A DNA stretch of 12,078 nucleotides from a virus (lineage: Duplodnaviria; Heunggongvirae; Uroviricota; Caudoviricetes), in IMG/VR virus record IMGVR_UViG_2537562220_000015; one strand, given 5' to 3'. A program made the position numbers and the translations under genes. Under the pieces are notes generated by a model. The model was not told where the DNA came from and did not search any database. It saw only the letters and a list, made by a program, of their open reading frames with translations. Below, piece by piece: positions 1 to 12,078 of this stretch (positions are counted from its first letter, which is position 1; each line of letters opens with the position of its first letter).

Positions 1-348
1 TCCATCGACAAGACGCAATCTCTTTCCGCTTGTACAACCCGTAACTGCGGCGCGTACAGCAAGTGTTTGTGCGGCAAGTATGCCAAACCAGTCGGCGGCA
101 TTCCGCAGCCGCTTCAGGAGAGCCACGTCAGATAATGTTGCAACGTCATGGAGCTGAGCCCATGCAGTGACTTCACGTAATGACATCCCCCCGGGGCCGT
201 AAGCCAGCCCCAGACGTAGCAGAGTTGCAGCATCACGAATTTCGCGGCGGCGGGTTAGAGCCCCGGCATTACGTGCCGAAGTATCCAGTTCTTCGGGCTT
301 ACCAATATGGGCCAGAATTGCTGACCAGTTATCGTGAGAGTAATTCAT
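1..348 (-). CDS. insL: IS186 transposase, N-terminal ~116 codons (gene continues beyond window start)
   Basis: Reverse complement of 301-348 translates to MNYSHDNWSAILAHIG. The frame is open to position 1. It was not in the ORF track because it is cut by the window edge. Confidence 0.8.
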   Translation of the reverse strand, partial: MNYSHDNWSAILAHIGKPEELDTSARNAGALTRRREIRDAATLLRLGLAYGPGGMSLREVTAWAQLHDVATLSDVALLKRLRNAADWFGILAAQTLAVRAAVTGCTSGKRLRLVDG

Positions 349-380
349 CGGCACGTTAAATCATATCAGGCGTAATACCA

Positions 381-403
381 CAACCCTTAAGTTAGCGCTT
401 ATG
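381..403. repeat. IS186 terminal inverted repeat (element end)
   Basis: caacccttaagttagcgcttatg lies ~35 bp outside the transposase start, as expected for an IS end. It is followed by G/C-rich ggcattacccccgac, consistent with the known GC-rich target preference of IS186. Confidence 0.7.
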
Positions 404-494
404 GGCATTACCCCCGACAGATCACAAAGCAGACTGGAATGATTACCACCAAAAACACGGCATTAAATGCGCCACAGAAGCGTTCAATAAGTCA

Positions 495-2267
495 ATGTAC
501 CAACCACAGGGTAATGGCGTGAAACAGGAGCCACAGACCATTGAGGGAAGCGATTTTAAGGTTATGGATACCGACCCACTGAAACCAAGAATAGAAAGCC
601 GCGAGGATGGTATTTATTGGGTATCTCCGAGAGCTGACAGCCAGAGTGGAGAAATCATCAATAACGAAAGCTGGTTATGTTCTCCGTTAAGCGTTATCGG
701 TACTGGCAGAGACGATAAAGACCAGTATCTCATTCTTCGCTGGCTGTCGTTTGGTTCTGAAACGCCGACAACCGCTGCCATTCCACTGGCTGATATTGGT
801 GAACGTGAAGGATGGCGCACACTTAAAGCTGGTGGGGTAAATGTCACGACCAAAAGCAGCCTCAGAGCAATACTGGCAGACTGGCTACAACGCAGTGGCT
901 CTCGTGAATTGTGGCGTGTTGCTCATGCCACTGGCTGGCAATGCGGAGCGTACATCATGCCTGATGGGGAAATCATCGGAACACCTGAAAATCCTGTGCT
1001 GTTCAGCGGGAGAAGCTCAGCCGCAGCCGGATATACCGTCTCAGGGAGCGCGAAAAGCTGGCGTGATAACGTGGCGCGTCTGGCCTTTGGTAACTATTCA
1101 ATGATGACCGGGATCGGCGCAGCACTGGCAGCGCCATTGATTGGGCTGGTGGGCGCTGACGGGTTCGGCATTCATTTCTATGAGCAGTCGAGCGCAGGTA
1201 AGACCACCACGGCAAACGTGGCGAGCAGCTTATACGGCAACCCTGATTTACTGCGGCTGACGTGGTACGGAACCGCGCTGGGGCTGGCAAATGAGGCCGC
1301 CGCCCACAATGACGGACTAATGCCGCTTGATGAAGTTGGTCAGGGCGCTGATCCTGTCAGCGTTTCACAGTCTGCCTATGCGTTATTTAACGGTGTAGGG
1401 AAACTGCAAGGCGCTAAAGATGGTGGAAACCGGGATCTAAAACGCTGGCGTACAGTGGCAATCAGCACCGGAGAAATGGATTTAGAAACATTTATCGCTA
1501 CTTCCGGGCGAAAAACCAAAGCCGGGCAACTGGTGCGACTGCTGAATATTCCGTTGAGTAAAGCAGTACGCTTTCACGATTACCAGAACGGAAAACAGCA
1601 CGCAGACGCACTGAAAGACGCTTACCAGCATCACCACGGCGCGTCCGGGCGTGAGTGGATTAAATGGCTGGCACACCACCAGCAACAGGCTATTAAAACC
1701 GTTCGTGATTGCGAAAGCAGATGGAGAAGCCTGATCCCATCCGATTATGGTGAGCAGGTTCACCGTGTAGCCGCGCGATTTGCCATTCTGGAGGCCGCAT
1801 TGTTGTTAGGCGAGGTTGTAACAGGCTGGGATGCTCAGACATGCCGTGATGCGATACAGCACAGCTATAACGCATGGTTGCGCGAGTTCGGCACAGGTAA
1901 CAAAGAGCATCAGCAGATTATTGAACAAACGGAGGCATTTCTTAATGCCTATGGGCTTAGCCGTTTTGCACCATTTCCATACAGCCCGGCAGATTTGCCC
2001 ATCAAAGATTTAGCCGGATACCGTCAGCGTGGAGAACATGACGAAAGCCCAATGATTTTCTACACATTCCCGGCCACATTTGAAAAGGAGATCGCATGTG
2101 GTTTCAACGCAAAACAGTTTGCTGAAGTGTTGAAAAAAGCCGGGATGCTAACCCCACCAAACAGCGGTCGTGGATACCAAAGAAAATCACCACGTATTCA
2201 GGGACGACAAATAAACGTTTATGTACTCAATTACCAGCCAGGAGATTATAACTCATCTGAAGAATGA
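495..2267 (+). CDS. Replicative primase/helicase-like protein (phage P4 alpha-like / satellite Pri-Rep type), probably the 3' portion of an IS186-interrupted gene
   Basis: 590-aa ORF with a Walker A-like P-loop (GIHFYEQSSAGKTT) about 225 residues in, then a long C-terminal region as expected for a DNA-binding/origin-recognition domain. The frame is open with no stop from the IS186 end (404) to the ATG at 495. No convincing SD precedes the ATG. Confidence 0.6.
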   Translation: MYQPQGNGVKQEPQTIEGSDFKVMDTDPLKPRIESREDGIYWVSPRADSQSGEIINNESWLCSPLSVIGTGRDDKDQYLILRWLSFGSETPTTAAIPLADIGEREGWRTLKAGGVNVTTKSSLRAILADWLQRSGSRELWRVAHATGWQCGAYIMPDGEIIGTPENPVLFSGRSSAAAGYTVSGSAKSWRDNVARLAFGNYSMMTGIGAALAAPLIGLVGADGFGIHFYEQSSAGKTTTANVASSLYGNPDLLRLTWYGTALGLANEAAAHNDGLMPLDEVGQGADPVSVSQSAYALFNGVGKLQGAKDGGNRDLKRWRTVAISTGEMDLETFIATSGRKTKAGQLVRLLNIPLSKAVRFHDYQNGKQHADALKDAYQHHHGASGREWIKWLAHHQQQAIKTVRDCESRWRSLIPSDYGEQVHRVAARFAILEAALLLGEVVTGWDAQTCRDAIQHSYNAWLREFGTGNKEHQQIIEQTEAFLNAYGLSRFAPFPYSPADLPIKDLAGYRQRGEHDESPMIFYTFPATFEKEIACGFNAKQFAEVLKKAGMLTPPNSGRGYQRKSPRIQGRQINVYVLNYQPGDYNSSEE

Positions 2268-2285
2268 GCTTCTTCATGTGCGTAG

Positions 2286-2403
2286 AAAAGGTGTTGGTTC
2301 AGTTGGTTCAGTTGGTTCAATTTGTAAAGTGTATTGTTTTATAAGGATTTTATTCTTTTTATTGAACCAACACTGAACCAACAACACGGTATTTTGAACC
2401 AAC
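2286..2403. repeat. Iteron cluster 1: three tandem 9-bp GTTGGTTCA repeats (2293-2319), AT-rich spacer, three inverted TGAACCAAC copies (2363-2371, 2374-2382, 2395-2403); candidate origin/operator
   Basis: Direct reading of the sequence. It sits immediately downstream of the primase/helicase gene, the position where satellite and plasmid replicons commonly place an iteron origin. Confidence 0.7.
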
Positions 2404-2723
2404 ACAATGTGACTGAATTGATGCGCACAACACCTGGCTGGCATCAGAGAGTGTTTTACGAGACTTTCGTAAAATCCTGTGTACAAGGGCGTGACGTTTT
2501 TGAAAGTGAGCACTACGAAATTTTCGTAGTTCAAAAAACAGCCTCTGAGAAGTTGTTATGCCTGTTCAGCAAACCATCCGCATAGCTGATCGCGAATCAA
2601 ATTACCAATGGAGCCAGAAGCAAGGGCAGAACTGAAAAGCGCCTGCCGTGAAGAGTAATGCGACACCATAAATATAGTTTTTAGAGTCCATAAAAAACCT
2701 GTCAAAACCTGACACACAGAACG

Positions 2724-2757
2724 ATGCCACCAGCTACTGAGCGGTGGCATTTTTTTG
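2724..2757 (+). terminator. Rho-independent terminator
   Basis: Perfect 8-bp stem ATGCCACC/GGTGGCAT (2724-2731 and 2743-2750) with an 11-nt loop, followed by TTTTTTT (2751-2757). It is oriented for plus-strand transcripts. Confidence 0.6.
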
Positions 2758-2851
2758 TGCTATTTGTTTCATATTTTGCAATTACTATGATGAATATTGC
2801 GATTTGTGAAACTATAATAACTGTTGTTTTATACAGTTCTAAGGGGGCGTT

Positions 2852-3029: not shown

Positions 3030-3491
3030 ATGGAACTAAAATTTATTGATAACCCTGTGCGATTACAGGCCTTTCTTAACGATCCTGGCAATACCGAAAA
3101 TATTGTTGAGCCGGGGCACACGTACTACATCAAGCCTGATGCGGTATATCTCGGCATCTACGAAGGATTGGTGTTGGCTGGCGTTCATGAAGTGCGTAAC
3201 TTCTGGCATAGCATTGTTGAATGCCATGCGGTGTACGACCCCGGATTCCGTGGTGAATATGCACTGCAAGGGCATCGGTTATTCTGCAAATGGCTTCTCG
3301 AAAACTCACCATTCCTTAACAGCATTACCATGGTTCCTGACACCACCAAATACGGACGGGCAATTATCCGTTTGCTTGGCGCTACCCGTGTTGGTCACCT
3401 TGATGATGCTTATATCAGATGTGGTAAACCCGTCGGCGTAACGCTTTATCAGTTAACTCGGCAACAATATAAGGAATTCAGCGAATGTTAA
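3030..3491 (+). CDS. Phage head-assembly/ejection-associated protein, P22 gp14-like (tentative)
   Basis: 153-aa ORF 16 nt after the small ORF. Its stop overlaps the start of the next gene. The assignment rests mainly on its position directly upstream of the gp7/gp20/gp16-like trio, which matches the P22 gene order 14-7-20-16. Confidence 0.5.
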   Translation: MELKFIDNPVRLQAFLNDPGNTENIVEPGHTYYIKPDAVYLGIYEGLVLAGVHEVRNFWHSIVECHAVYDPGFRGEYALQGHRLFCKWLLENSPFLNSITMVPDTTKYGRAIIRLLGATRVGHLDDAYIRCGKPVGVTLYQLTRQQYKEFSEC

Positions 3492-4162
3492 TTACCCACA
3501 TAGCTCATAAACATCTCAATCGTGCCGTATACGAAAAAGGCGGTGATGGTGGTGCCTCTAAAGCTCAGGCGAAGGCCCAGCAGCAGGCAATTGATTTGCA
3601 GCGCGAGCAGTGGAATACGGTGATGAATAATCTCAAGCCGTATGCAGAAGTCGGATTGCCTGCTTTACAACAACTACAAGGACTGATGACTCTGGAAGGG
3701 CAGAATAAAGCCGCGAATGATTTCTTTGGTTCTGGTTTATATAAAACACAGGCAGATCAGGCCCGTTATCAGAACCTTGTCTCAGCAGAAGCTACCGGGG
3801 GGCTTGGCTCAACAGCTACCAGTAACCAGTTATCTTCCATTGCGCCCATGCTTTATAACAATTGGCTTAGTGGGCAAATGCAAAATTATGGAAACCTGCT
3901 AAATGTCGGGATGAATGCGGCATCAGGGCAGGCAACAGCAGGGCAAAACTACGCCAATAATACCGGGCAACTCTTGCAGGGGCTTGGCGCTATTCGAGCA
4001 GGTCAGGCGCAGCAGCCATCCAGTCTTGCGCGTGGTATTGGTGGGGCGGCATCAGGCGCTTTAGCGGGTGCGCAACTTGGTTCCGTTGTTCCGGGTATAG
4101 GTAATGTCGCCGGGGCTATTGGTGGTGGGCTTATTGGTCTTGTTGGGGGGCTTGGATTCTAA
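3485..4162 (+). CDS. Phage ejection (DNA transfer/injection) protein, P22 gp7-like
   Basis: 225 aa, close to the size I recall for P22 gp7 (~229 aa). Gln/Ala-rich N-terminal part and Gly-rich hydrophobic C-terminus (GIGNVAGAIGGGLIGLVGGLGF). The stop overlaps the next start (TAATG). Confidence 0.65.
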   Translation: MLITHIAHKHLNRAVYEKGGDGGASKAQAKAQQQAIDLQREQWNTVMNNLKPYAEVGLPALQQLQGLMTLEGQNKAANDFFGSGLYKTQADQARYQNLVSAEATGGLGSTATSNQLSSIAPMLYNNWLSGQMQNYGNLLNVGMNAASGQATAGQNYANNTGQLLQGLGAIRAGQAQQPSSLARGIGGAASGALAGAQLGSVVPGIGNVAGAIGGGLIGLVGGLGF

Positions 4163-5583
4163 TGGCGACATGGCAACTTGGCGGGCTGCCTAGCATGGCA
4201 CCGCAAAATGATAATGCTCCTCGTTCTTCCGTTCCTCAGCCTGTGCAGTATCAGCAGCAGCCAAACGTAGGTTTAATGGCGCTACAGGGGCTAAGAGGCG
4301 TTGCTGAGATTAATCAGCAGGCACGTCAACAACAGCGTAAAGCAGAGTTTCAGAAAGCATATGCCGGGGCTTTTGAGTCTGGAGACAGAAACAAAATGCG
4401 CAGTCTTATTTCTGAGTATCCAGAAGAATTTGAAAGCGTTCAGAAAGGGATGGGCTTTATTGATGACGACCAGAGAAATTCTATTGGTCATCTTGCGACT
4501 AGTGCTCAAATCGCATCTTCGCTCGGAACTGGGGCATTTGGAAAATTCATAGCAGATAACGAAGATGAAATGCGTCGCTTGGGAATTTCTCCTGAGTCTG
4601 TTGCCGAAATGCATGTTAATGATCCACAGGGATTCCAGCGGCTTGCTGGTAGTATGGCACTGTTTTCTCTCGGTCATGAGAAGTATTTCGATATCAAAGA
4701 TCAAATGGAAGGTCGGGATATTGAGCGTGGCAAGTTGGCAGAAACAATCCGCAGCAATCAGGCTGGCGAAGCACTTCAGGCGAGAGGGCAGGATATTAGC
4801 CGAGCAAATGCGTTAACGTCAGCATATGCACCAACAGCAGCAATGCAGAATTACAATCAGTACGCTCAAATGTTAAAGGAGGATCCAGAGGGGGCGGCGG
4901 CATTTGCGGCAGCGGCTGGAATTAATACAAACGCCAAAAAATTAATGAGTGTTAGAGAAAACGATGATGGCACTGTCACAAAATACTACACAGACGGAAG
5001 TGAAGAGCAGGGAAAACTAACCCAGCCAATATCTGGAGATGGGTTTCGTCCAATAGCTTTGCCAACAGCCCAAAAGATCATGGAAAAGTCGCCAGAAGGG
5101 GCTAAAAAAGCTGCTGGATTTGCATACAGGGTTAGGGATGCTCTTGATTCAATAGATACACTGAAAGACCAGCTTAGCCCACAGCGAGTGGCGATCATTA
5201 ATAATGCTTTGGGTAATGGGACGTTGGCTAACTTAACGCTCAGCCCAACAGAGCAGCAATACGTTGTTAATGCTAATGACGCAATAATGGCAATACTCCG
5301 TCAGGAAACAGGGGCAGCTATCGTACCTGCTGAAATGTCAAAATATTATCAAATGTATTTCCCTCAGCCTGGCGACTCCACAAAAACCATTGATACCAAG
5401 CGCCTGAAGATGGAAAACCAGTTCAATTCGCTGAAAGCTGCTTCTGGTCGAGCTTATGATGCTTTGCGGGTTATTTCAGCAGTTGACAGAGGAACTTCTT
5501 CTTCGTCGCAGACATTGCCGCAATCTGAGCAGGTATCACAGCCAGCAGCCAGCAGTAACTTTTCTTCACTATGGGGTGATTAA
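4162..5583 (+). CDS. Phage ejection (DNA transfer) protein, P22 gp20-like
   Basis: 473 aa, close to the size I recall for P22 gp20 (~471 aa). Translationally coupled at both ends (TAATG overlaps at 4160-4164 and 5581-5585). Codon usage matches its neighbours. Confidence 0.65.
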   Translation: MATWQLGGLPSMAPQNDNAPRSSVPQPVQYQQQPNVGLMALQGLRGVAEINQQARQQQRKAEFQKAYAGAFESGDRNKMRSLISEYPEEFESVQKGMGFIDDDQRNSIGHLATSAQIASSLGTGAFGKFIADNEDEMRRLGISPESVAEMHVNDPQGFQRLAGSMALFSLGHEKYFDIKDQMEGRDIERGKLAETIRSNQAGEALQARGQDISRANALTSAYAPTAAMQNYNQYAQMLKEDPEGAAAFAAAAGINTNAKKLMSVRENDDGTVTKYYTDGSEEQGKLTQPISGDGFRPIALPTAQKIMEKSPEGAKKAAGFAYRVRDALDSIDTLKDQLSPQRVAIINNALGNGTLANLTLSPTEQQYVVNANDAIMAILRQETGAAIVPAEMSKYYQMYFPQPGDSTKTIDTKRLKMENQFNSLKAASGRAYDALRVISAVDRGTSSSSQTLPQSEQVSQPAASSNFSSLWGD

Positions 5584-7688
5584 TGGCTAAAGCATGGAAA
5601 GATGTTATCGCCTCTCCACAGTATCAGGCGTTAGCACCAGAACAAAAAGCGCAGGCTCAGGAGCAATACTTCAATGAAGTCGTTGCCCCGCAAGCCGGAG
5701 AAAGTGTAGAGCAGGCTAAGCAGGCTTTTTATGCTGCCTATCCACTACCATCAACGAATGAAATAGACCGAGCCCAATCAGCAACTCAAAATATTCAACA
5801 TACATCATCTGATAATTCTCTTGCGTCAGGGTATGCAAAGTTAGCTACTCAGCAAAGAGAGGGGCTTGAGCGTTCAGCAGAACAGGGAGCCAGCCTTGGG
5901 GCTGCGATGCGCGATGCTATAACAGGCGAAAGCCGAATGACTCCAGAGATGGAGAGACTGCAAAATGTCGACCTTGCCCCAGAGTTAACCTCACTCAGCA
6001 TGGATGCTCTAAAAGCTCGATGGTCTCAACTTTTCGGCTCTGACGCATCTCAGGAAAAGATTCTTCAGAGCATGGGAGCGAAATTAAGGCAGGATGAGAA
6101 GGGTAACACTATCGTTTCCCTGCCATCCGGTGATTATGCTCTGAACAAGCCGGGTTTATCGCCGCAAGACGTGGCATCGTTTCTGGCTAATGCGCTGGCG
6201 TTTACACCAGCGGGCAGGGCCGGAACGGTGCTGGGGGCCATAGGGAAATCAGCAGCTACAGATTTAGCACTACAGGGAGCCACCAGCCTCGCTGGTGGAG
6301 AAGATATTGATCCGTTACAAACGGTAATTTCTGCTGGCATTGGTGGTATTGGTAAGGGGCTGGAAAATACAGCGAGTGCGGTTTCGAGGGCTGTTCGTGG
6401 TGATATGTCGCCTGAAGCAAAGGCTGCTGTCGACTTTGCATCGGAAAGAAATCTGCCGTTAATGACCAGTGACATGCTGAAAGATAAAACCTTTATGCAG
6501 AGTCAGGCTCAGACATTAGGCGAAAGAGTTCCTTTTTTTGGAACCGGTAAGAATCGGCTGAATCAACAACAAGCACGAGAAAATTTAGTCAGAACATTTA
6601 GCGATGGTCTGGGTGGCATTTCTGATAAACAGCTTTATGAATCTGCGACTAAAGGGCAACAAAAATTCATTGAGGCAGCAGGAAAGCGATATAACCGCAT
6701 AATTGACGCTATGGGGGATACCCCTGTCGATCTCTCAAACACGGTAAAAGCTATCGACAATCAGATTGCTGTGTTAAGCCGCCCGGGTAAATCTCAGGAT
6801 AGAGCCGCGGTAAAAGTCTTGCAGCAATTTAAAGACGATATCACCAGCGGACCAAATGACCTGCGTCTGGCGAGGGAAAACAGAACCGATCTTCGAAAGC
6901 GGTTTATGGCGTCATCTGACACTGTTGATAAAGATACGCTCCAGAAAGCCAGCGATATTATCTACAAGGCATATACGGCGGATATGAAAAAAGCCGTAGC
7001 CAAAAATCTTGGAGCAGACGAAGCCATTAATATGGCAAGGGTTGATCGCTCATGGTCTAAATTCAATGACATGATGGGAAGAACGCGCGTTCAAAAGGCA
7101 ATAGCCAGCGGCAAGGCCACGCCTGAGGATGTAACAAAACTCGTTTTTAGCCAAAGCCCATCAGAACGTTCTCAGCTTTACAGGCTTCTGGATGACAATG
7201 GTAGGCAAAACGCACGAGCAGCCATAGTTCAGAATGCTGTAGATAAGGCGACTGATCCGTCTGGAAATATCAGTGTTGAGAAGTTTATTAATGCGTTACA
7301 CCGGAACAGGAAGCAATCAGCAACTTTCTTTAAAGGCGTACATGGAAAGGAACTGGACGGCGTTATTAAATACCTCAACGATACAAGACACGCGGCAAAA
7401 GCGAACGTTCAAAACTTAAATGGTCAGCAGCTTTATGGATTGTTAGTTGGTGGTGGCATCATAAACGCAGCAGTATTAGCGGGGATGCTAAAAACGGCTG
7501 CGTTTGTTGTTCCTGCTGCTGGTGCCGTAGGCGGAGCAGCGAAGGCATACGAAAGCCCTGTTATACGAAATGCCTTGTTACGTCTGGCAAATACGCCAAA
7601 AGGTAGCACAGCATATGACAGAGCGATCAGTACGGTCACACAATCGCTCACCAGAGTCGCACAGGCATCACAAAAAGAAGCTCAATAA
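5583..7688 (+). CDS. Phage ejection (DNA transfer) protein, P22 gp16-like
   Basis: 701-aa ORF, last of the coupled gene set. It has a Gly/Ala-rich hydrophobic segment near the C-terminus (LLVGGGIINAAVLAGMLKTAAFVVPAAGAVGGAAKA). Its position after the gp7/gp20-like genes matches the P22 order. Confidence 0.65.
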   Translation: MAKAWKDVIASPQYQALAPEQKAQAQEQYFNEVVAPQAGESVEQAKQAFYAAYPLPSTNEIDRAQSATQNIQHTSSDNSLASGYAKLATQQREGLERSAEQGASLGAAMRDAITGESRMTPEMERLQNVDLAPELTSLSMDALKARWSQLFGSDASQEKILQSMGAKLRQDEKGNTIVSLPSGDYALNKPGLSPQDVASFLANALAFTPAGRAGTVLGAIGKSAATDLALQGATSLAGGEDIDPLQTVISAGIGGIGKGLENTASAVSRAVRGDMSPEAKAAVDFASERNLPLMTSDMLKDKTFMQSQAQTLGERVPFFGTGKNRLNQQQARENLVRTFSDGLGGISDKQLYESATKGQQKFIEAAGKRYNRIIDAMGDTPVDLSNTVKAIDNQIAVLSRPGKSQDRAAVKVLQQFKDDITSGPNDLRLARENRTDLRKRFMASSDTVDKDTLQKASDIIYKAYTADMKKAVAKNLGADEAINMARVDRSWSKFNDMMGRTRVQKAIASGKATPEDVTKLVFSQSPSERSQLYRLLDDNGRQNARAAIVQNAVDKATDPSGNISVEKFINALHRNRKQSATFFKGVHGKELDGVIKYLNDTRHAAKANVQNLNGQQLYGLLVGGGIINAAVLAGMLKTAAFVVPAAGAVGGAAKAYESPVIRNALLRLANTPKGSTAYDRAISTVTQSLTRVAQASQKEAQ

Positions 7689-7706
7689 CTGGTAGCCATG
7701 GATGGC

Positions 7707-8321
7707 TTAGATATCTCTGCTGTCTCCATTAGGAAATAAAAGATAATATGGATTTGCCTTTCTTGCTCTCCTTGCTTCACCTGGATACCTGTTAGTCAGT
7801 AGTTTGCATAATGAGCAGAGAACAACACTCAAGAAAATTCCGAATGAGAAGATCAATATCTCACCAAAAATCAATGGCGATATTAAATTTTCAGGATTTA
7901 ATGATAAGTCAATGTTAAAAACATATTGAGCAATACCAGTAAGTATCAATAATATAATCCCTATGGAATACATTGCTGTTTCCCAAACATCAGACAGTCT
8001 ATTTTTGAATTGTTCGCTGGAGTAGTAGTTTGTTATAAAGTCAGAAAAATCACTCTCATATGCATCATCTTTAGGTGATGTTAGAAATCCTCTGTCTCTC
8101 CATACCTTCTCCCAATTAGTCGATTCTTTTTTTAAGGAAAAATAAATATGTATTGCCAAAAGGATAGCCAAAATTGGTGTTAGCTCTAAAAAATAGAATG
8201 TTATGGAATAAATAATACTGCCATGTTCAAACTCATCTGGGACTATCATGTATGCACAAAAATAAATTGAAAAGTACACCATGCAGATAGTTAGCAATTC
8301 TTTAGTATCTTTTCTGCTCAC
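7707..8321 (-). CDS. AT-rich multi-pass inner-membrane protein; candidate superinfection-exclusion or abortive-infection effector
   Basis: 204-aa ORF with a GTG start at 8319-8321 preceded by a strong SD (AAAGGGGG on the coding strand, ~5-nt spacer). It has at least four hydrophobic helices and a ~70-residue charged loop. GC content is clearly lower than the flanking genes (roughly one third by eye versus about half). It is convergent with the ejection operon, 18 bp from its stop. Confidence 0.6.
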   Translation of the reverse strand: MSRKDTKELLTICMVYFSIYFCAYMIVPDEFEHGSIIYSITFYFLELTPILAILLAIHIYFSLKKESTNWEKVWRDRGFLTSPKDDAYESDFSDFITNYYSSEQFKNRLSDVWETAMYSIGIILLILTGIAQYVFNIDLSLNPENLISPLIFGEILIFSFGIFLSVVLCSLCKLLTNRYPGEARRARKANPYYLLFPNGDSRDI

Positions 8322-9095: not shown

Positions 9096-9190
9096 ACAGG
9101 CAACCGAGCCCGATCCTCTGTTTCTCCGCCGCCGATTTTAGGCATGTGAGTTTCACGGTCGGGCCTTTTATTATCTTTTGTTTCGCCACT

Positions 9191-10168
9191 ATGATTGCCG
9201 CAAAGCCTCATAAGGACTATCACGAATTGCTAGGATTGCTACTTGAACGTGGCATGATTATCAATGATCGAAATCGTGCGATACGTAAGCTGTCGCAGGT
9301 TGGATATTATCGATTGTCAGGTTTTTGGTACCCATCAAGAATTATTGCGACAACAGATAAAGGTCTTTCGTACAGAACAGACCGATTTCTTGCTGGTACC
9401 AGTTTCGAGAAGACGTACGATCTATATCTTTTTGACAAAAAACTGCGTCTTTTGATGATTGATGCTATCGAAAGAATAGAGATTCATGTTCGTTCAGTCA
9501 TCGCGCATGAGGTTGGTCGCAATGATCCACTTGCCTACATGTCATCAAAATACATTAATCCAAAATTCTCATCTGCCTTCGAGCATTGGGTGTATAAGCA
9601 AAAAGTAAAATTAGACGAAAGCAGAGATGACTGTATTGAATGGCATCGAAGCCAAGGCAAGGAGATTCCATTTTGGGTGGCGGTGGAGACCTGGGATTTT
9701 GGTCAGATGTCTAAATATTATGCGATGCTTAATGGTCATATGCATGGGAAAATTATACGTCGTTTTGGCATTGATAATAAGCAGACATTTGCAAAATGGT
9801 TGAAGTGCCTTAATCTCATAAGGAATCGTTGCGCTCACCATTCCAGAATATGGAATAGAAAGCATCCCCGAGTTCCAGTACCGGATAATGAATACTTTGA
9901 CGGACTTAATCTCCATCCAGAGAGTTGCGAGAGGATTTTTAGCGCGATCTGTATTATCTGGTACTTAGTTAAACGACTTGGTCCGGGATCAACATGGCTT
10001 CGGCAAATTGCAGACCTTATTGACTCTAAACCAAATGTTCCCGGATGTGGATATGATTCAATGGGTTTACCTGCTAAAGGATTCCCACGAGAGAGATTCT
10101 CTCAGGACTTAGGTTTTGTTATCGCCGACAACGACCCTGTAGCTGAAGGGCGGAAAGGGAGCGATTGA
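9191..10168 (+). CDS. Abi_2 family (AbiD/AbiF-like) abortive-infection protein with a HEPN-type Rx4H motif
   Basis: Contains NLIRNRCAHHSRIWNRK, the conserved Abi_2/HEPN signature as I recall it (R-x4-H within RNRCAH). The N-terminal region KDYHELLGLLLERGMIINDRNRAIRKLSQVGYYRLSGFWYP matches the AbiD-family N-terminal pattern. I prefer the ATG at 9191 (MIAAKPHKDY...) over the longer track ORF starting at 9146, whose 15 extra residues are hydrophobic and not family-like. Neither start has a clear SD. Confidence 0.7.
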   Translation: MIAAKPHKDYHELLGLLLERGMIINDRNRAIRKLSQVGYYRLSGFWYPSRIIATTDKGLSYRTDRFLAGTSFEKTYDLYLFDKKLRLLMIDAIERIEIHVRSVIAHEVGRNDPLAYMSSKYINPKFSSAFEHWVYKQKVKLDESRDDCIEWHRSQGKEIPFWVAVETWDFGQMSKYYAMLNGHMHGKIIRRFGIDNKQTFAKWLKCLNLIRNRCAHHSRIWNRKHPRVPVPDNEYFDGLNLHPESCERIFSAICIIWYLVKRLGPGSTWLRQIADLIDSKPNVPGCGYDSMGLPAKGFPRERFSQDLGFVIADNDPVAEGRKGSD

Positions 10169-10740: not shown

Positions 10741-10868
10741 GTTGGTTCAGAGCTGGGCTGTGTTGGTTCAAAATGAGTTGATGTTGGTTCAATATTTCAG
10801 AAAAAACACAATAAAAACAACGATCTTTACAAATTGAACCAACTGAACCAACTGAACCAACACCTTTT
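10741..10868. repeat. Iteron cluster 2: three spaced GTTGGTTCA copies (10741-10749, 10762-10770, 10783-10791), AT-rich spacer, three tandem TGAACCAAC copies (10835-10861). Region 10825-10868 is the exact reverse complement of 2286-2329
   Basis: Direct comparison: the reverse complement of 10825-10868 is aaaaggtgttggttcagttggttcagttggttcaatttgtaaag, identical to 2286-2329 (44/44). The whole cluster is organised as the mirror image of cluster 1. Confidence 0.75.
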
Positions 10869-10897: not shown

Positions 10898-11185
10898 ATG
10901 ATAAGGGACAGGAAAGCTGAAGAACTGGAGTCAAAAGGGCTATACCGGAGAGCTGCCGCACGATGGGCAGAAGTCATGATGCTGGCAGATGGCGATAAAG
11001 AACGTGAACATGCAGCAAACAGACGCTCTGAATGTATCCGTAAGGCGGCACGCCCACCAGCAACTACAGACAGATTCGGAGATTTAAGACAGGCAGTTAA
11101 GCGGACTCATTCGGCTCTTGGTATGGATGAGGAAGCGAGAGGGTATTTCAGGCGTTATCGCGATAAAGATTGCCAGAGACAGTAA
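10898..11185 (+). CDS. PerC-family transcriptional regulator (PerC/Pch-like)
   Basis: 95-aa ORF with an SD (GAGAGG) 5-8 nt upstream. MIRDRKAEELESKGLYRRAAARWAEVM... resembles the N-terminal signature of PerC/Pch activators of EPEC/EHEC (a conserved ...ELE.KGL(Y/W)RRAA.RW.(E/D)VM motif, from memory). Confidence 0.6.
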   Translation: MIRDRKAEELESKGLYRRAAARWAEVMMLADGDKEREHAANRRSECIRKAARPPATTDRFGDLRQAVKRTHSALGMDEEARGYFRRYRDKDCQRQ

Positions 11186-11667: not shown

Positions 11668-12078
11668 TTAAGCCAATTGCTGCCGCCATTCTTTGACGTA
11701 GTCAATCAGGGCGCGGAGCTTTGGTGCAATATTGCGACGCTGTGGGAAATACAGATAGAAGCCCGGAAATTGTGGAAGAAAGTCATCAAGCAGCGATACA
11801 AGCTTACCGCTTTCAATATATGGCCTGAAAGTTTCCTGAGTGGCAATTGTTATTCCTCCGCCGGCAAGAGCCAGCCTCAACATCAGACGCAGATCATTAG
11901 TCGTAATCTGCGGTTCAATCGCAAGGTCGAAAGTTCTCCCGTTTTCTTCAAATGGCCAGCGATAAGGCGCAACCTCCGGGGACTGACGCCAGCCGATACA
12001 CTTATGGGTATTTCCCCCGGAGGCGAGAAAGCGCTCTCCACGCCCGGCCGCAAGGATCAGGACGACGGGGGCAGGCAT
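11668..12078 (-). CDS. LysR-family transcriptional regulator, C-terminal substrate-binding portion (gene starts beyond the window end)
   Basis: ...FDLAIEPQITTNDLRLMLRLALAGGGITIATQETFRPYIESGKLVSLLDDFLPQFPGFYLYFPQRRNIAPKLRALIDYVKEW is a typical LysR C-terminal effector-domain pattern. The Met at the window edge is probably internal. It is likely a chromosomal core gene at the island boundary. Confidence 0.6.
   Translation of the reverse strand: MPAPVVLILAAGRGERFLASGGNTHKCIGWRQSPEVAPYRWPFEENGRTFDLAIEPQITTNDLRLMLRLALAGGGITIATQETFRPYIESGKLVSLLDDFLPQFPGFYLYFPQRRNIAPKLRALIDYVKEWRQQLA

Follow-up and report, generated by a model that had tools for sequence, protein, structure and literature searches.

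The DNA analyzed here, a stretch of 12,078 nucleotides from a Caudoviricetes virus record (IMGVR_UViG_2537562220_000015; hereafter the window), opens with one end of an insertion sequence (IS), behind which an open reading frame (ORF) for a helicase-like protein follows. This arrangement raises the question of whether the IS lies beside a complete gene or has split a longer one, and what the answer would mean for the mobile island that carries the gene. A first-pass annotation of the sequence proposed that IS186 probably interrupts a primase/helicase gene, and the uninterrupted 918-aa homologues described below bear this out.

An IS186 end opens the window

Positions 1-403 of the window match the first 403 nt of IS186A from E. 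coli K-12, in reverse complement, with 0 mismatches, and they are also identical to the last 403 nt of a 1339-bp IS186 copy in NZ_CP045277. Assignment to IS186 (IS4 family) draws on the 23-bp terminal repeat and near-identity to the reference, both of which are present, with one end of the element inside the window; the repeat ends at 403, where the first-pass annotation had placed it (Table 1). The start of the window is the start of a draft contig (APXR01000072.1) and lies within the IS. No RNAs came up when the window was scanned against Rfam and for tRNAs.

Table 1. Coordinates of the features at the IS186-pri junction and of the candidate origin, in window positions
Feature	Position	Strand	Remarks
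IS186, transposase-start end	1..403	-	cut off by the start of the window and contig
insL transposase ORF	starts 348, runs leftward	-	gene called at 1-348 in L002
23-bp terminal inverted repeat of IS186	381..403	.	CAACCCTTAAGTTAGCGCTTATG on the + strand; exact at both ends of complete copies
Right-hand copy of the 10-bp target-site duplication, GGCATTACCC	404..413	.	same 10 bp on both sides of the IS in L014
pri 3' remnant	404..2267	+	third base of codon 298 to stop; 0 mismatches to L001
Longest ORF of the remnant, 590 aa (residues 329-918)	495..2267	+	DUF927, Walker A, Walker B, C-terminal region
Candidate origin	2293..2403	.	starts 26 nt after the pri stop; untouched by the IS

The insertion falls within the coding sequence of pri

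Comparison with E. coli chromosomes supports an IS186 insertion within the primase-helicase gene, pri, and not in an intergenic site. Uninterrupted homologues are 100% identical in DNA over window positions 404-2400, and there the sequence belongs to one continuous 918-aa coding sequence (CDS) that reaches 893 nt upstream of the IS junction; in the representative L001, 6001-7864 corresponds to the remnant and lies in a CDS at 5108-7864. Of 5426 complete E. coli genomes, 361 cover at least 80% of the query. The intact protein contains, by Pfam, Zn_Ribbon_Prim (34-69), Toprim_3 (221-318), and DUF927 (365-643), and phrog_1139, annotated as "DNA primase," spans it nearly end to end (17-910 of 918). 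Alignment to these homologues located the missing N-terminal part, Zn_Ribbon_Prim and Toprim_3, upstream of the junction and placed the insertion point at codon 298, inside the Toprim domain.

The first-pass annotation had argued from a frame open from 404 to the ATG at 495. The frame is indeed open, though it begins at 405: in the frame of the 495-2267 ORF, the stop-free stretch covers 396-494, an in-frame TAG at 393-395 sits in the IS repeat, and the non-IS part amounts to 30 codons (405-494). The accompanying caution that a run of this length can arise by chance was sound, the probability being ~0.24 in theory and 0.32 as measured over the six frames of the window. The verdict of a split gene therefore comes from the uninterrupted homologues, which are decisive in a way that the open frame is not.

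Those chance probabilities would also suit a gene that natively starts at ATG 495, with the IS placed between genes and the upstream run of 30 codons open by coincidence, and distant stand-alone Rep helicases do begin near that point. However, the 91 nt between the IS and the ATG are 100% identical to the interior of the 918-aa CDS in hundreds of genomes, and the Toprim_3 match is broken by the IS. Close homologues start upstream, so that the IS lies inside their ORF, and none was seen with a native start at Met329, the residue encoded at 495. A native start at 495 has next to no chance of being correct; the continuous 918-aa CDS in homologues identical at the DNA level rules it out.

The 590-aa ORF is a helicase remnant

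Because the IS cut pri in codon 298, the 590-aa ORF lacks the zinc ribbon and Toprim domain. DUF927 (residues 37-315) is its only Pfam domain, and of the three modules tested for (zinc ribbon, Toprim, and DUF927, with phrog_1139), all of which are found in the intact homologue, it retains DUF927 only. The first-pass annotation was correct that the product has no N-terminal primase domain and that it carries a Walker A motif; the motif, SAGKT (in SSAGKTT), sits at residues 233-237, slightly later than the ~225 preceding residues it had counted, and is followed by a Walker B motif, LMPLDE, at 275-280.

The ORF is colinear with a 580-aa stand-alone PDB chain, 8tch (query 75-485 to chain 85-479, E = 1e-11), with the two Walker A motifs aligned, and also, in a weak match, with Cch (PDB 5dgk). 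The PDB record describes 8tch only as "Pathogenicity island protein"; we read it as a SaPI Rep because Cch, a DUF927 protein, has been described as related to SaPIbov1 Rep (PMC7581432). A "DUF927 domain-containing protein" of 590 aa in annotations of this locus is thus what is left of a gene rather than a native protein.

Sister alleles carry both sides of the insertion

The target in the intact gene, GTGG(CATTAC)CCCC, is one mismatch (GTGG versus GGGG) from the IS186 consensus GGGG(N6)CCCC, reported as GGGG(N6/N7)CCCC by Lee et al. 2016 (PMC5009759). The duplicated GGCATTACCC is the central 10 bp of this target, and K-12 IS186A likewise duplicates the central 10 bp of its motif.

For the far side of the IS, the products predicted for duplications of 8-14 bp were matched exactly against a protein collection. 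The 304-aa N-terminal fragment predicted for a 10-bp duplication was found (P0122), as was a second haplotype of it (P0150); it comprises the zinc ribbon and the Toprim domain minus its last ~17 residues and ends in three IS-encoded residues, HKR. The 303-aa product for a 14-bp duplication also matched, but its end, ...VALPPT, is uninterrupted sequence in partial proteins and provides no evidence of a junction. A homology search with the N-terminal fragment returned many truncated forms, the expected one being absent among the cluster representatives.

In L014, a single 3.88-Mb contig, a complete 1338-bp IS flanked on each side by GGCATTACCC separates the fragment from the 590-aa ORF, and contigs that show the left junction (L015-L020 and L023) run at their ends through GGCATTACCC directly into CATAAGCGC. 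Both the target-site duplication and the N-terminal portion that the first-pass annotation expected beyond the IS were found in this way, in sister alleles from other strains. The IS occupies the pri site in the orientation of the window in L002-L007, L010, L016, and L017 and in the opposite orientation in L011, L014, L015, L018-L020, and L023. Since both orientations are seen, across three haplotypes of the gene and two places in the chromosome, the sequences indicate that IS186 has hit the pri site at least twice. None of the 5426 complete E. coli genomes carries the disrupted allele with a junction in either orientation.

From these other strains we infer a simple insertion in the source strain, which would give a left junction of GGATGGGTGGCATTACCC followed by CATAAGCGCTAACTTAAGGGTTGAACCA. 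This junction was not found among the listed contigs with the 304-aa fragment, which came from other samples and none from the GCA_00035xxxx assemblies; five further N-terminal haplotypes yielded one left junction, again in another sample. The source strain may instead have undergone an IS-mediated adjacent deletion, or recombination with another IS186 copy, through which the 5' third of pri, and perhaps further parts of the island, were lost or moved; beyond the IS one would then find neither the N-terminal fragment nor the second copy of the duplication. As such a rearrangement would allow, the start of the window lies within the IS, and so does that of each of the seven NCBI draft contigs sharing its junction (L002-L007 and L009). 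Deletions do occur in the region, for example one from antA to pri in L008 that leaves the same 590-aa ORF, and in other strains pri is joined to genes for ejection proteins (P0043 and P0071). Against this, the right junction does not differ from that of alleles with a simple insertion, and other samples (L016, likewise at the proA locus, and L017) have left junctions that agree with the window in orientation and carry the corresponding 10 bp; absence among the listed contigs is weak evidence. Moreover, draft assemblies routinely break at IS copies. We regard a rearrangement in the source strain as unlikely, if well worth bearing in mind.

The island resembles a Gram-negative PICI with an intact candidate origin

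The island occupies the proA/thrW-yagP locus of the E. coli chromosome, measures ~19-20 kb, and, judged by its genes, looks like a satellite of the Gram-negative PICI (GN-PICI) type. In one direction it contains int, alpA, Bro-network genes (AntA and Phage_ASH), the primase gene, the candidate origin, and captured phage late genes, an order that matches the described GN-PICI zones (PMC10111431). Co-oriented int, alpA, and pri are seen in L001, L015-L018, and L023; the window itself shows the pri remnant only. A DUF927-containing primase is among those grouped as PICI "Primase" in that study, which also describes pri as indispensable for the induction and transfer of GN-PICIs and places their ori downstream of pri (PMC10111431).

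The candidate origin consists of three direct 9-bp iterons, GTTGGTTCA (2293-2319), an AT-rich spacer (GC 0.23), and three inverted iterons (2363-2403). The 9-mer occurs 12 times in the window, versus 0.12 expected. This layout matches that of the iteron origins described immediately 3' of rep in SaPIs and of pri in GN-PICIs (PMC7581432, PMC10111431).

Expected consequences of the split gene

The reading we favor, with a probability of about 0.85, is that an IS186 identical to K-12 IS186A transposed into the fused pri of a PICI-like island and split the gene, leaving an island expected to excise without replicating or being transferred. The insertion would divide pri into the 304-aa N-terminal piece and the 3' remnant, the first usable start codon of which, Met329, would open the 590-aa ORF with the whole Rep-type helicase and a putative origin-binding region. 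This ORF probably goes unexpressed: no Shine-Dalgarno or GGAG-like motif was found in the 15 nt upstream of ATG 495, and a crude consensus scan of positions 200-600, the IS end included, found no sigma-70-like promoter. In the window the transposase is oriented away from the remnant, so a polar effect of the IS on transcripts arriving from genes to the left in the island is also to be expected. The candidate iteron origin downstream is intact but would lack its cognate initiator, so the island would be expected to excise and yet neither replicate nor be transferred. We infer, then, both a loss of replication and transfer after induction and a lack of 590-aa expression. The first-pass annotation had gone further, suggesting an inactivated replicon and an element fixed in the chromosome; a loss of replication is indeed expected, but "fixed" overstates the case, because int and alpA are untouched in the sister alleles and excision should therefore not be blocked.

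The gene could be split but not dead, if the 590-aa ORF were expressed at some level and supplied a self-loading Rep helicase to the intact iterons, with priming by host DnaG or the 304-aa fragment. The insertion lies close to the boundary of the primase and helicase modules, Met329 falling just past the end of Toprim_3 (318). SaPIs keep the pri and rep functions separate, and the primase is reported not to be essential for replication in vivo (PMC7581432); given this dispensability and the colinearity of the ORF with natural stand-alone Rep helicases (8tch and, weakly, Cch), partial function is conceivable. However, the absence of promoter-like and Shine-Dalgarno sites noted above speaks against expression, and transcription of the transposase, which lies antisense in the window, should not read through into the ORF. 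The fusion is kept in all intact close relatives, phrog_1139 is a full-length fused family, and pri is reportedly required for GN-PICI transfer (PMC10111431). We consider residual function improbable and retain the favored reading of a disabled island.

A more far-reaching proposal, which we think decidedly doubtful, is that the near-consensus target in pri acts as a recurrent "off switch," by which host IS186 copies domesticate this satellite family while selection keeps the cargo. Were this so, replication and transfer would be lost and the cargo (SieA-like, Abi_2, and ejection-protein genes) kept, and the repeated hits, in both orientations, three haplotypes, and two loci, would reflect selection and not just target preference. 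The case is better seen as the ordinary disabling of a mobile element, which leaves current understanding unchallenged; the disrupted allele is rare (0 of 5426 complete genomes, versus 361 with the intact gene). In practical terms, the island of the source strain should be scored as replication-defective, and surveys that count "intact" satellites can be skewed by IS hot spots that lie in PICI replication genes.

Comparison with known systems

No published description of IS186 at the pri site was found in the literature searched, but the element is known to hit identical positions repeatedly in either orientation, at the lon promoter (PMC3045373) and in mutation-accumulation lines (PMC5009759). 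The pri site shares with these hot spots (the lon promoter of E. coli B and K-12; Lee et al. 2016) the element itself, a GC-flanked palindromic target, the central 10-bp duplication, and repeated hits at one position in both orientations. It differs in that the lon hot spot is a host promoter, whereas the pri target is a one-mismatch site in the coding sequence of a mobile island, and in that recurrence is seen in natural isolates rather than laboratory lines. The pri case may therefore serve as a natural example of the IS186 target rule, a one-mismatch coding site hit independently in several strains.

Relative to described GN-PICIs, the island has a second, inverted iteron cluster near perC, and its pri is broken in the window. 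In place of capsid genes, its late zone has P22-type ejection proteins (gp14, gp7, gp20, and gp16), a SieA-like gene, and Abi_2; the ejection genes hint at a P22-like helper, and a literature search on satellites with ejection proteins returned nothing relevant.

The first-pass annotation had called the protein P4 alpha-type. As an analogy of architecture this stands: like P4 alpha, the intact protein combines, in a satellite, an N-terminal Toprim primase with an NTPase/helicase in the middle and a C-terminal part that is expected to be origin-binding, and its motif EGLATA recalls the EGYATA motif of P4. As a statement of family membership it does not. P4 alpha is expected to have a helicase module of the D5_N (D5_N/Primase_Cte) type, but that of the pri protein is DUF927, of the SaPI Rep/Cch type; the Pfam search gave no match to PF08706 or Pox_D5 in the full-length protein or in its truncated form. 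Some homologues of the N-terminal part carry PF08706 in place of DUF927, which indicates that either type of helicase can be paired with this primase module.

Parallels also lie with SaPI Rep and SCCmec Cch, which share the DUF927 helicase half with its Walker A and B motifs (the sequence match is significant for 8tch and weak for 5dgk), and SaPI Rep systems likewise have iterons around an AT-rich spacer immediately 3' of the gene (PMC7581432). The similarity of the E. coli helicase half to 8tch is nevertheless low, and the intact E. coli protein fuses the helicase to a DnaG-type zinc-ribbon and Toprim primase, whereas the primases of SaPIbov1 and SaPI5 are of the AEP type (PMC7581432).

IS186 interrupts a fused primase-helicase gene

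Reverse-complemented, window positions 1-403 align with 0 mismatches to the opening 403 nt of K-12 IS186A, and the same positions are identical to the final 403 nt of a 1339-bp IS186 copy in NZ_CP045277. This perfect identity, together with a 23-bp terminal inverted repeat, confirms the IS186 end placed at position 403 by the first-pass annotation. The window starts where draft contig APXR01000072.1 (GCA_000357725.1) starts, and contigs of six sister NCBI draft assemblies start at differing depths within the same IS copy; the window begins inside IS186 because the element broke these assemblies.

The frame of the 590-aa open reading frame (ORF) downstream of the IS (495-2267, plus strand) is stop-free back to position 396, preceded by a TAG (393-395) within the IS repeat. 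Thirty consecutive codons free of stops arise by chance with a probability of 0.24-0.32, and we agree with the earlier caution that this alone is weak evidence. When window 404-2400 was used as a query against 5426 complete E. coli genomes, 513 matched, 361 of them with at least 80% query coverage. The best matches were 100% identical and lay inside one CDS, annotated as "TOPRIM and DUF927 domain-containing protein" and here called pri. In NZ_CP031293 (locus L001) the intact gene occupies 5108-7864, encodes 918 aa and runs uninterrupted across the junction. Window position 404 corresponds to L001 position 6001, which leaves 893 nt of coding sequence upstream of the junction and therefore places IS186 in pri codon 298. 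PHROG family 1139 ("DNA primase") spans residues 17-910 of the intact protein. The 590-aa ORF equals residues 329-918 exactly and keeps DUF927 as its sole domain, with Walker A at 233-237 and Walker B at 275-280; the zinc ribbon and Toprim_3 of the intact homologues are missing from it, bearing out the proposal that the ORF product lacks an N-terminal primase domain. A native start at 495 beside an intergenic IS is refuted by the intact CDS spanning the junction, and no close homologue was found to start at the equivalent position. The finding is thus real, and these complete genomes support the original interpretation that IS186 interrupts the primase/helicase gene.

Features of the window and of the intact pri product
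Feature	Position	Strand or direction	Remarks
IS186 terminal inverted repeat	381-403		23 bp
insL transposase gene	start 348	leftward	exits window
Three direct GTTGGTTCA repeats	2293-2319		
AT-rich spacer	between direct and inverted copies		GC 0.23
Three inverted GTTGGTTCA copies	2363-2403		
GC-rich hairpin	2715-2759	(+)	GATGCCACC...GGTGGCATC-like arms, then TTTTTTT
P22-type block downstream of pri	3030-8321		DUF2824, P22_gp7, Inj_translocase (gp20-like), Phage_P22_gp16
Abi_2 (abortive infection) family ORF	9146-10168		near island right end
PerC-family regulator ORF	10898-11185		near island right end
LysR-substrate-domain ORF	11668-12078	(-)	136 aa
Zn_Ribbon_Prim	residues 34-69 of intact 918-aa protein		Pfam
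Toprim_3	residues 221-318 of intact 918-aa protein		Pfam
DUF927	residues 365-643 of intact 918-aa protein		Pfam

The N-terminal fragment and the target-site duplication

Candidate N-terminal products were derived by placing the IS end after L001 5108-6000 plus a target duplication of 8 to 14 nt, and the translations were looked up by exact sequence. The product of a 10-bp duplication was found, a 304-aa protein with the C-terminus ...GWVALPHKR* (P0122). The 303-aa product for a 14-bp duplication (P0121) matched too; its C-terminus, ...VALPPT, is uninterrupted sequence, and the matches are deposited partial proteins that are uninformative on any IS junction. The contigs that code for the 304-aa protein terminate in ...GGATGGGTGGCATTACCC joined to CATAAGCGCTAACTTAAGGGTTG..., and a single 3.88-Mb contig (L014, GCA_974498875.1) carries every part: the N-terminal fragment of 304 aa, an IS186 copy complete at 1338 bp with GGCATTACCC at both ends, and the 590-aa ORF. 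The duplication and N-terminal portion predicted beyond the IS are therefore present in other strains, and for the window's strain we infer a simple insertion. None of the contigs listed with the 304-aa fragment comes from an assembly bearing the window's own junction, and deletions are known in the region (locus L008; fusion proteins P0043 and P0071), both in keeping with a later deletion or rearrangement, mediated by the IS, of the left side in that strain; we consider this unlikely, and pri is interrupted under either history.

Other lesions of pri were also encountered. In L008 (9770-9800; Logan ERR10766647), from a different strain, a deletion fuses mid-antA to a point in pri that precedes the IS186 target by about 100 nt, giving the same 590-aa ORF with the IS absent. 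Many other independently damaged versions occur in E. coli (P0003, P0038, P0043, P0054 and P0071), among them proteins cut short near residues 188 and 261 that end in foreign tails, a frameshift near residue 166, and proteins in which the pri N-terminus is fused in frame to unrelated sequence, which in P0071 has a Phage_P22_gp16 match. Decay of pri is thus frequent and proceeds by several routes.

Recurrent insertion at one site

IS186 targets 5'-GGGG(N6/N7)CCCC-3' (Lee et al. 2016, PMC5009759), a motif that is rare in the genome and at some sites struck many times independently (PMC5009759); at the lon promoter, insertions occur at one position in either orientation (PMC3045373). The K-12 IS186A site is GGGG(ATCACT)CCCC, with the central 10 bp, GGATCACTCC, duplicated. 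The pri site, GTGG(CATTAC)CCCC, shows identical duplication geometry (GGCATTACCC duplicated) but carries one mismatch to the consensus. A second one-mismatch target, (C)GGGATGCTAACCCC, lies within pri at 2141-2155; no insertion was found there among the loci examined.

Both orientations occur because the target is palindromic, and the IS186 ends can be told apart by the bases adjoining the 23-bp repeat on its inner side (...GGGTTGTGGTA where the transposase starts, ...GGGTTGAACCA where it stops). The window's orientation, with the transposase antisense to pri, is seen at the IS-to-ORF (right) junctions of the window, L002-L007 and L010 and at the fragment-to-IS (left) junctions of L016 and L017. 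The opposite, co-directional orientation is seen at the right junctions of L011 and L014 and the left junctions of L014, L015, L018, L019, L020 and L023, where the calls for L018, L019 and L023 depend on one base. Islands adjoining proA show both orientations (L015, L016), as does a related island adjoining yicC whose integrase differs (L014, L017, L018). The same junction is found in a second protein haplotype (I245M, P0150/L023), and of 1997 positions downstream of the IS, 12 distinguish L014 from the window. Two orientations and differing backgrounds indicate that the same phosphodiester position was hit on at least two occasions and probably on more. The insertion is absent in either orientation from the 5426 complete RefSeq E. 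coli genomes, so the events are sporadic and recent.

Near-identical pri genes occur in closely related islands at two chromosomal sites, those adjoining proA (L015, L016, L023) having a 404-aa integrase and those adjoining yicC (L014, L017, L018) one of 419-422 aa; their replication module has been swapped between integration modules.

Consequences for replication of the island

The insertion splits the fused protein into two pieces. The 304-aa piece lacks the last ~17 residues of Toprim_3, and the first start codon of the 3' remnant is Met329. A crude consensus scan found no promoter-like site in window 200-600, no Shine-Dalgarno-like motif occurs in the 15 nt preceding the ATG at 495, and IS186 separates the remnant from the island's upstream genes, with its transposase antisense to the remnant; we therefore infer that expression of the remnant is poor or nil.

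Over query positions 75-485 the 590-aa ORF aligns colinearly with chain positions 85-479 of PDB 8tch (E = 1e-11), a 580-aa protein that stands alone and is named "Pathogenicity island protein"; it also weakly matches the SCCmec helicase Cch (PDB 5dgk). Cch, of the DUF927 type, has been described as a relative of the self-loading initiator helicase SaPIbov1 Rep, and the C-terminal domain of SaPI Rep binds iterons directly downstream of the rep gene (PMC7581432). The remnant might accordingly still work as a stand-alone Rep: the cut falls near the primase/helicase module boundary, the remnant's extent equals that of a natural stand-alone Rep, and the SaPI primase is reported to be dispensable in vivo (PMC7581432). 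No expression signal supports this, however, and we regard a split but functional gene as very improbable.

The window has a SaPI-like layout, in which an iteron structure starting 26 nt past the pri stop codon is a candidate origin; the GTTGGTTCA 9-mer occurs 12 times in the window against 0.12 expected. With pri inactivated, this candidate origin would be left without its cognate initiator, so that no amplification or transfer of the island would be expected after induction. The earlier suggestion that the element is fixed in the chromosome goes too far: L016, a sister allele sharing the window's orientation and locus, retains intact integrase and alpA genes, and excision is therefore not prevented.

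A second GTTGGTTCA cluster lies at 10741-10861 (also L021 7515-7635), just upstream of the PerC-like ORF, with three direct copies at 21-nt and three inverted copies at 9-nt spacing. It is the first cluster (2293-2403) turned around, the two sharing a 44-nt identical core between unrelated flanks, and is found too in an island with intact pri. The cargo of ejection-protein, sieA and Abi genes is thus enclosed by two ori-like clusters in inverted orientation; the second cluster may be another origin, a decoy or a recombination site.

Cargo and presumed right boundary

The hairpin downstream of the candidate origin resembles an intrinsic terminator; it lies within a 760-nt non-coding stretch between ori and the next ORF and had no family match in Rfam. 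The P22-type block, whose DUF2824 protein we take to be gp14-like, includes a weak minus-strand match to SieA, and capsid, terminase and tail genes are absent from this zone. The Abi_2 and PerC-family ORFs may be defence or regulatory cargo. In a longer contig an XdhC-family gene follows the LysR-substrate-domain ORF, and the pair looks like yagQ/paoD and the yagP pseudogene of K-12; the island region on the thrW side would then meet the chromosome here.

Comparison with known islands

The event itself is unexceptional: a well-characterised IS has inactivated a mobile-element gene by inserting at a near-consensus target. Mildly new are the pri site as a natural recurrent IS186 hot spot and the identity of the affected gene, which is the pri-rep gene of a PICI-like island and lies next to an iteron candidate origin. 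A satellite-like island with ejection proteins alone is unusual relative to described PICI late zones, and our literature search returned no description of satellites bearing only ejection proteins. Induction and transfer of Gram-negative PICIs are reported to require int, alpA and pri, and the ori of these elements is located 3' of pri (PMC10111431). Intact and sister islands are unidirectional, in the order int, alpA, AntA, DUF4222, Phage_ASH, small ORFs, pri, ori and phage late genes, which fits the Integration, Bro, Replication and Late zones of Gram-negative PICIs (PMC10111431).
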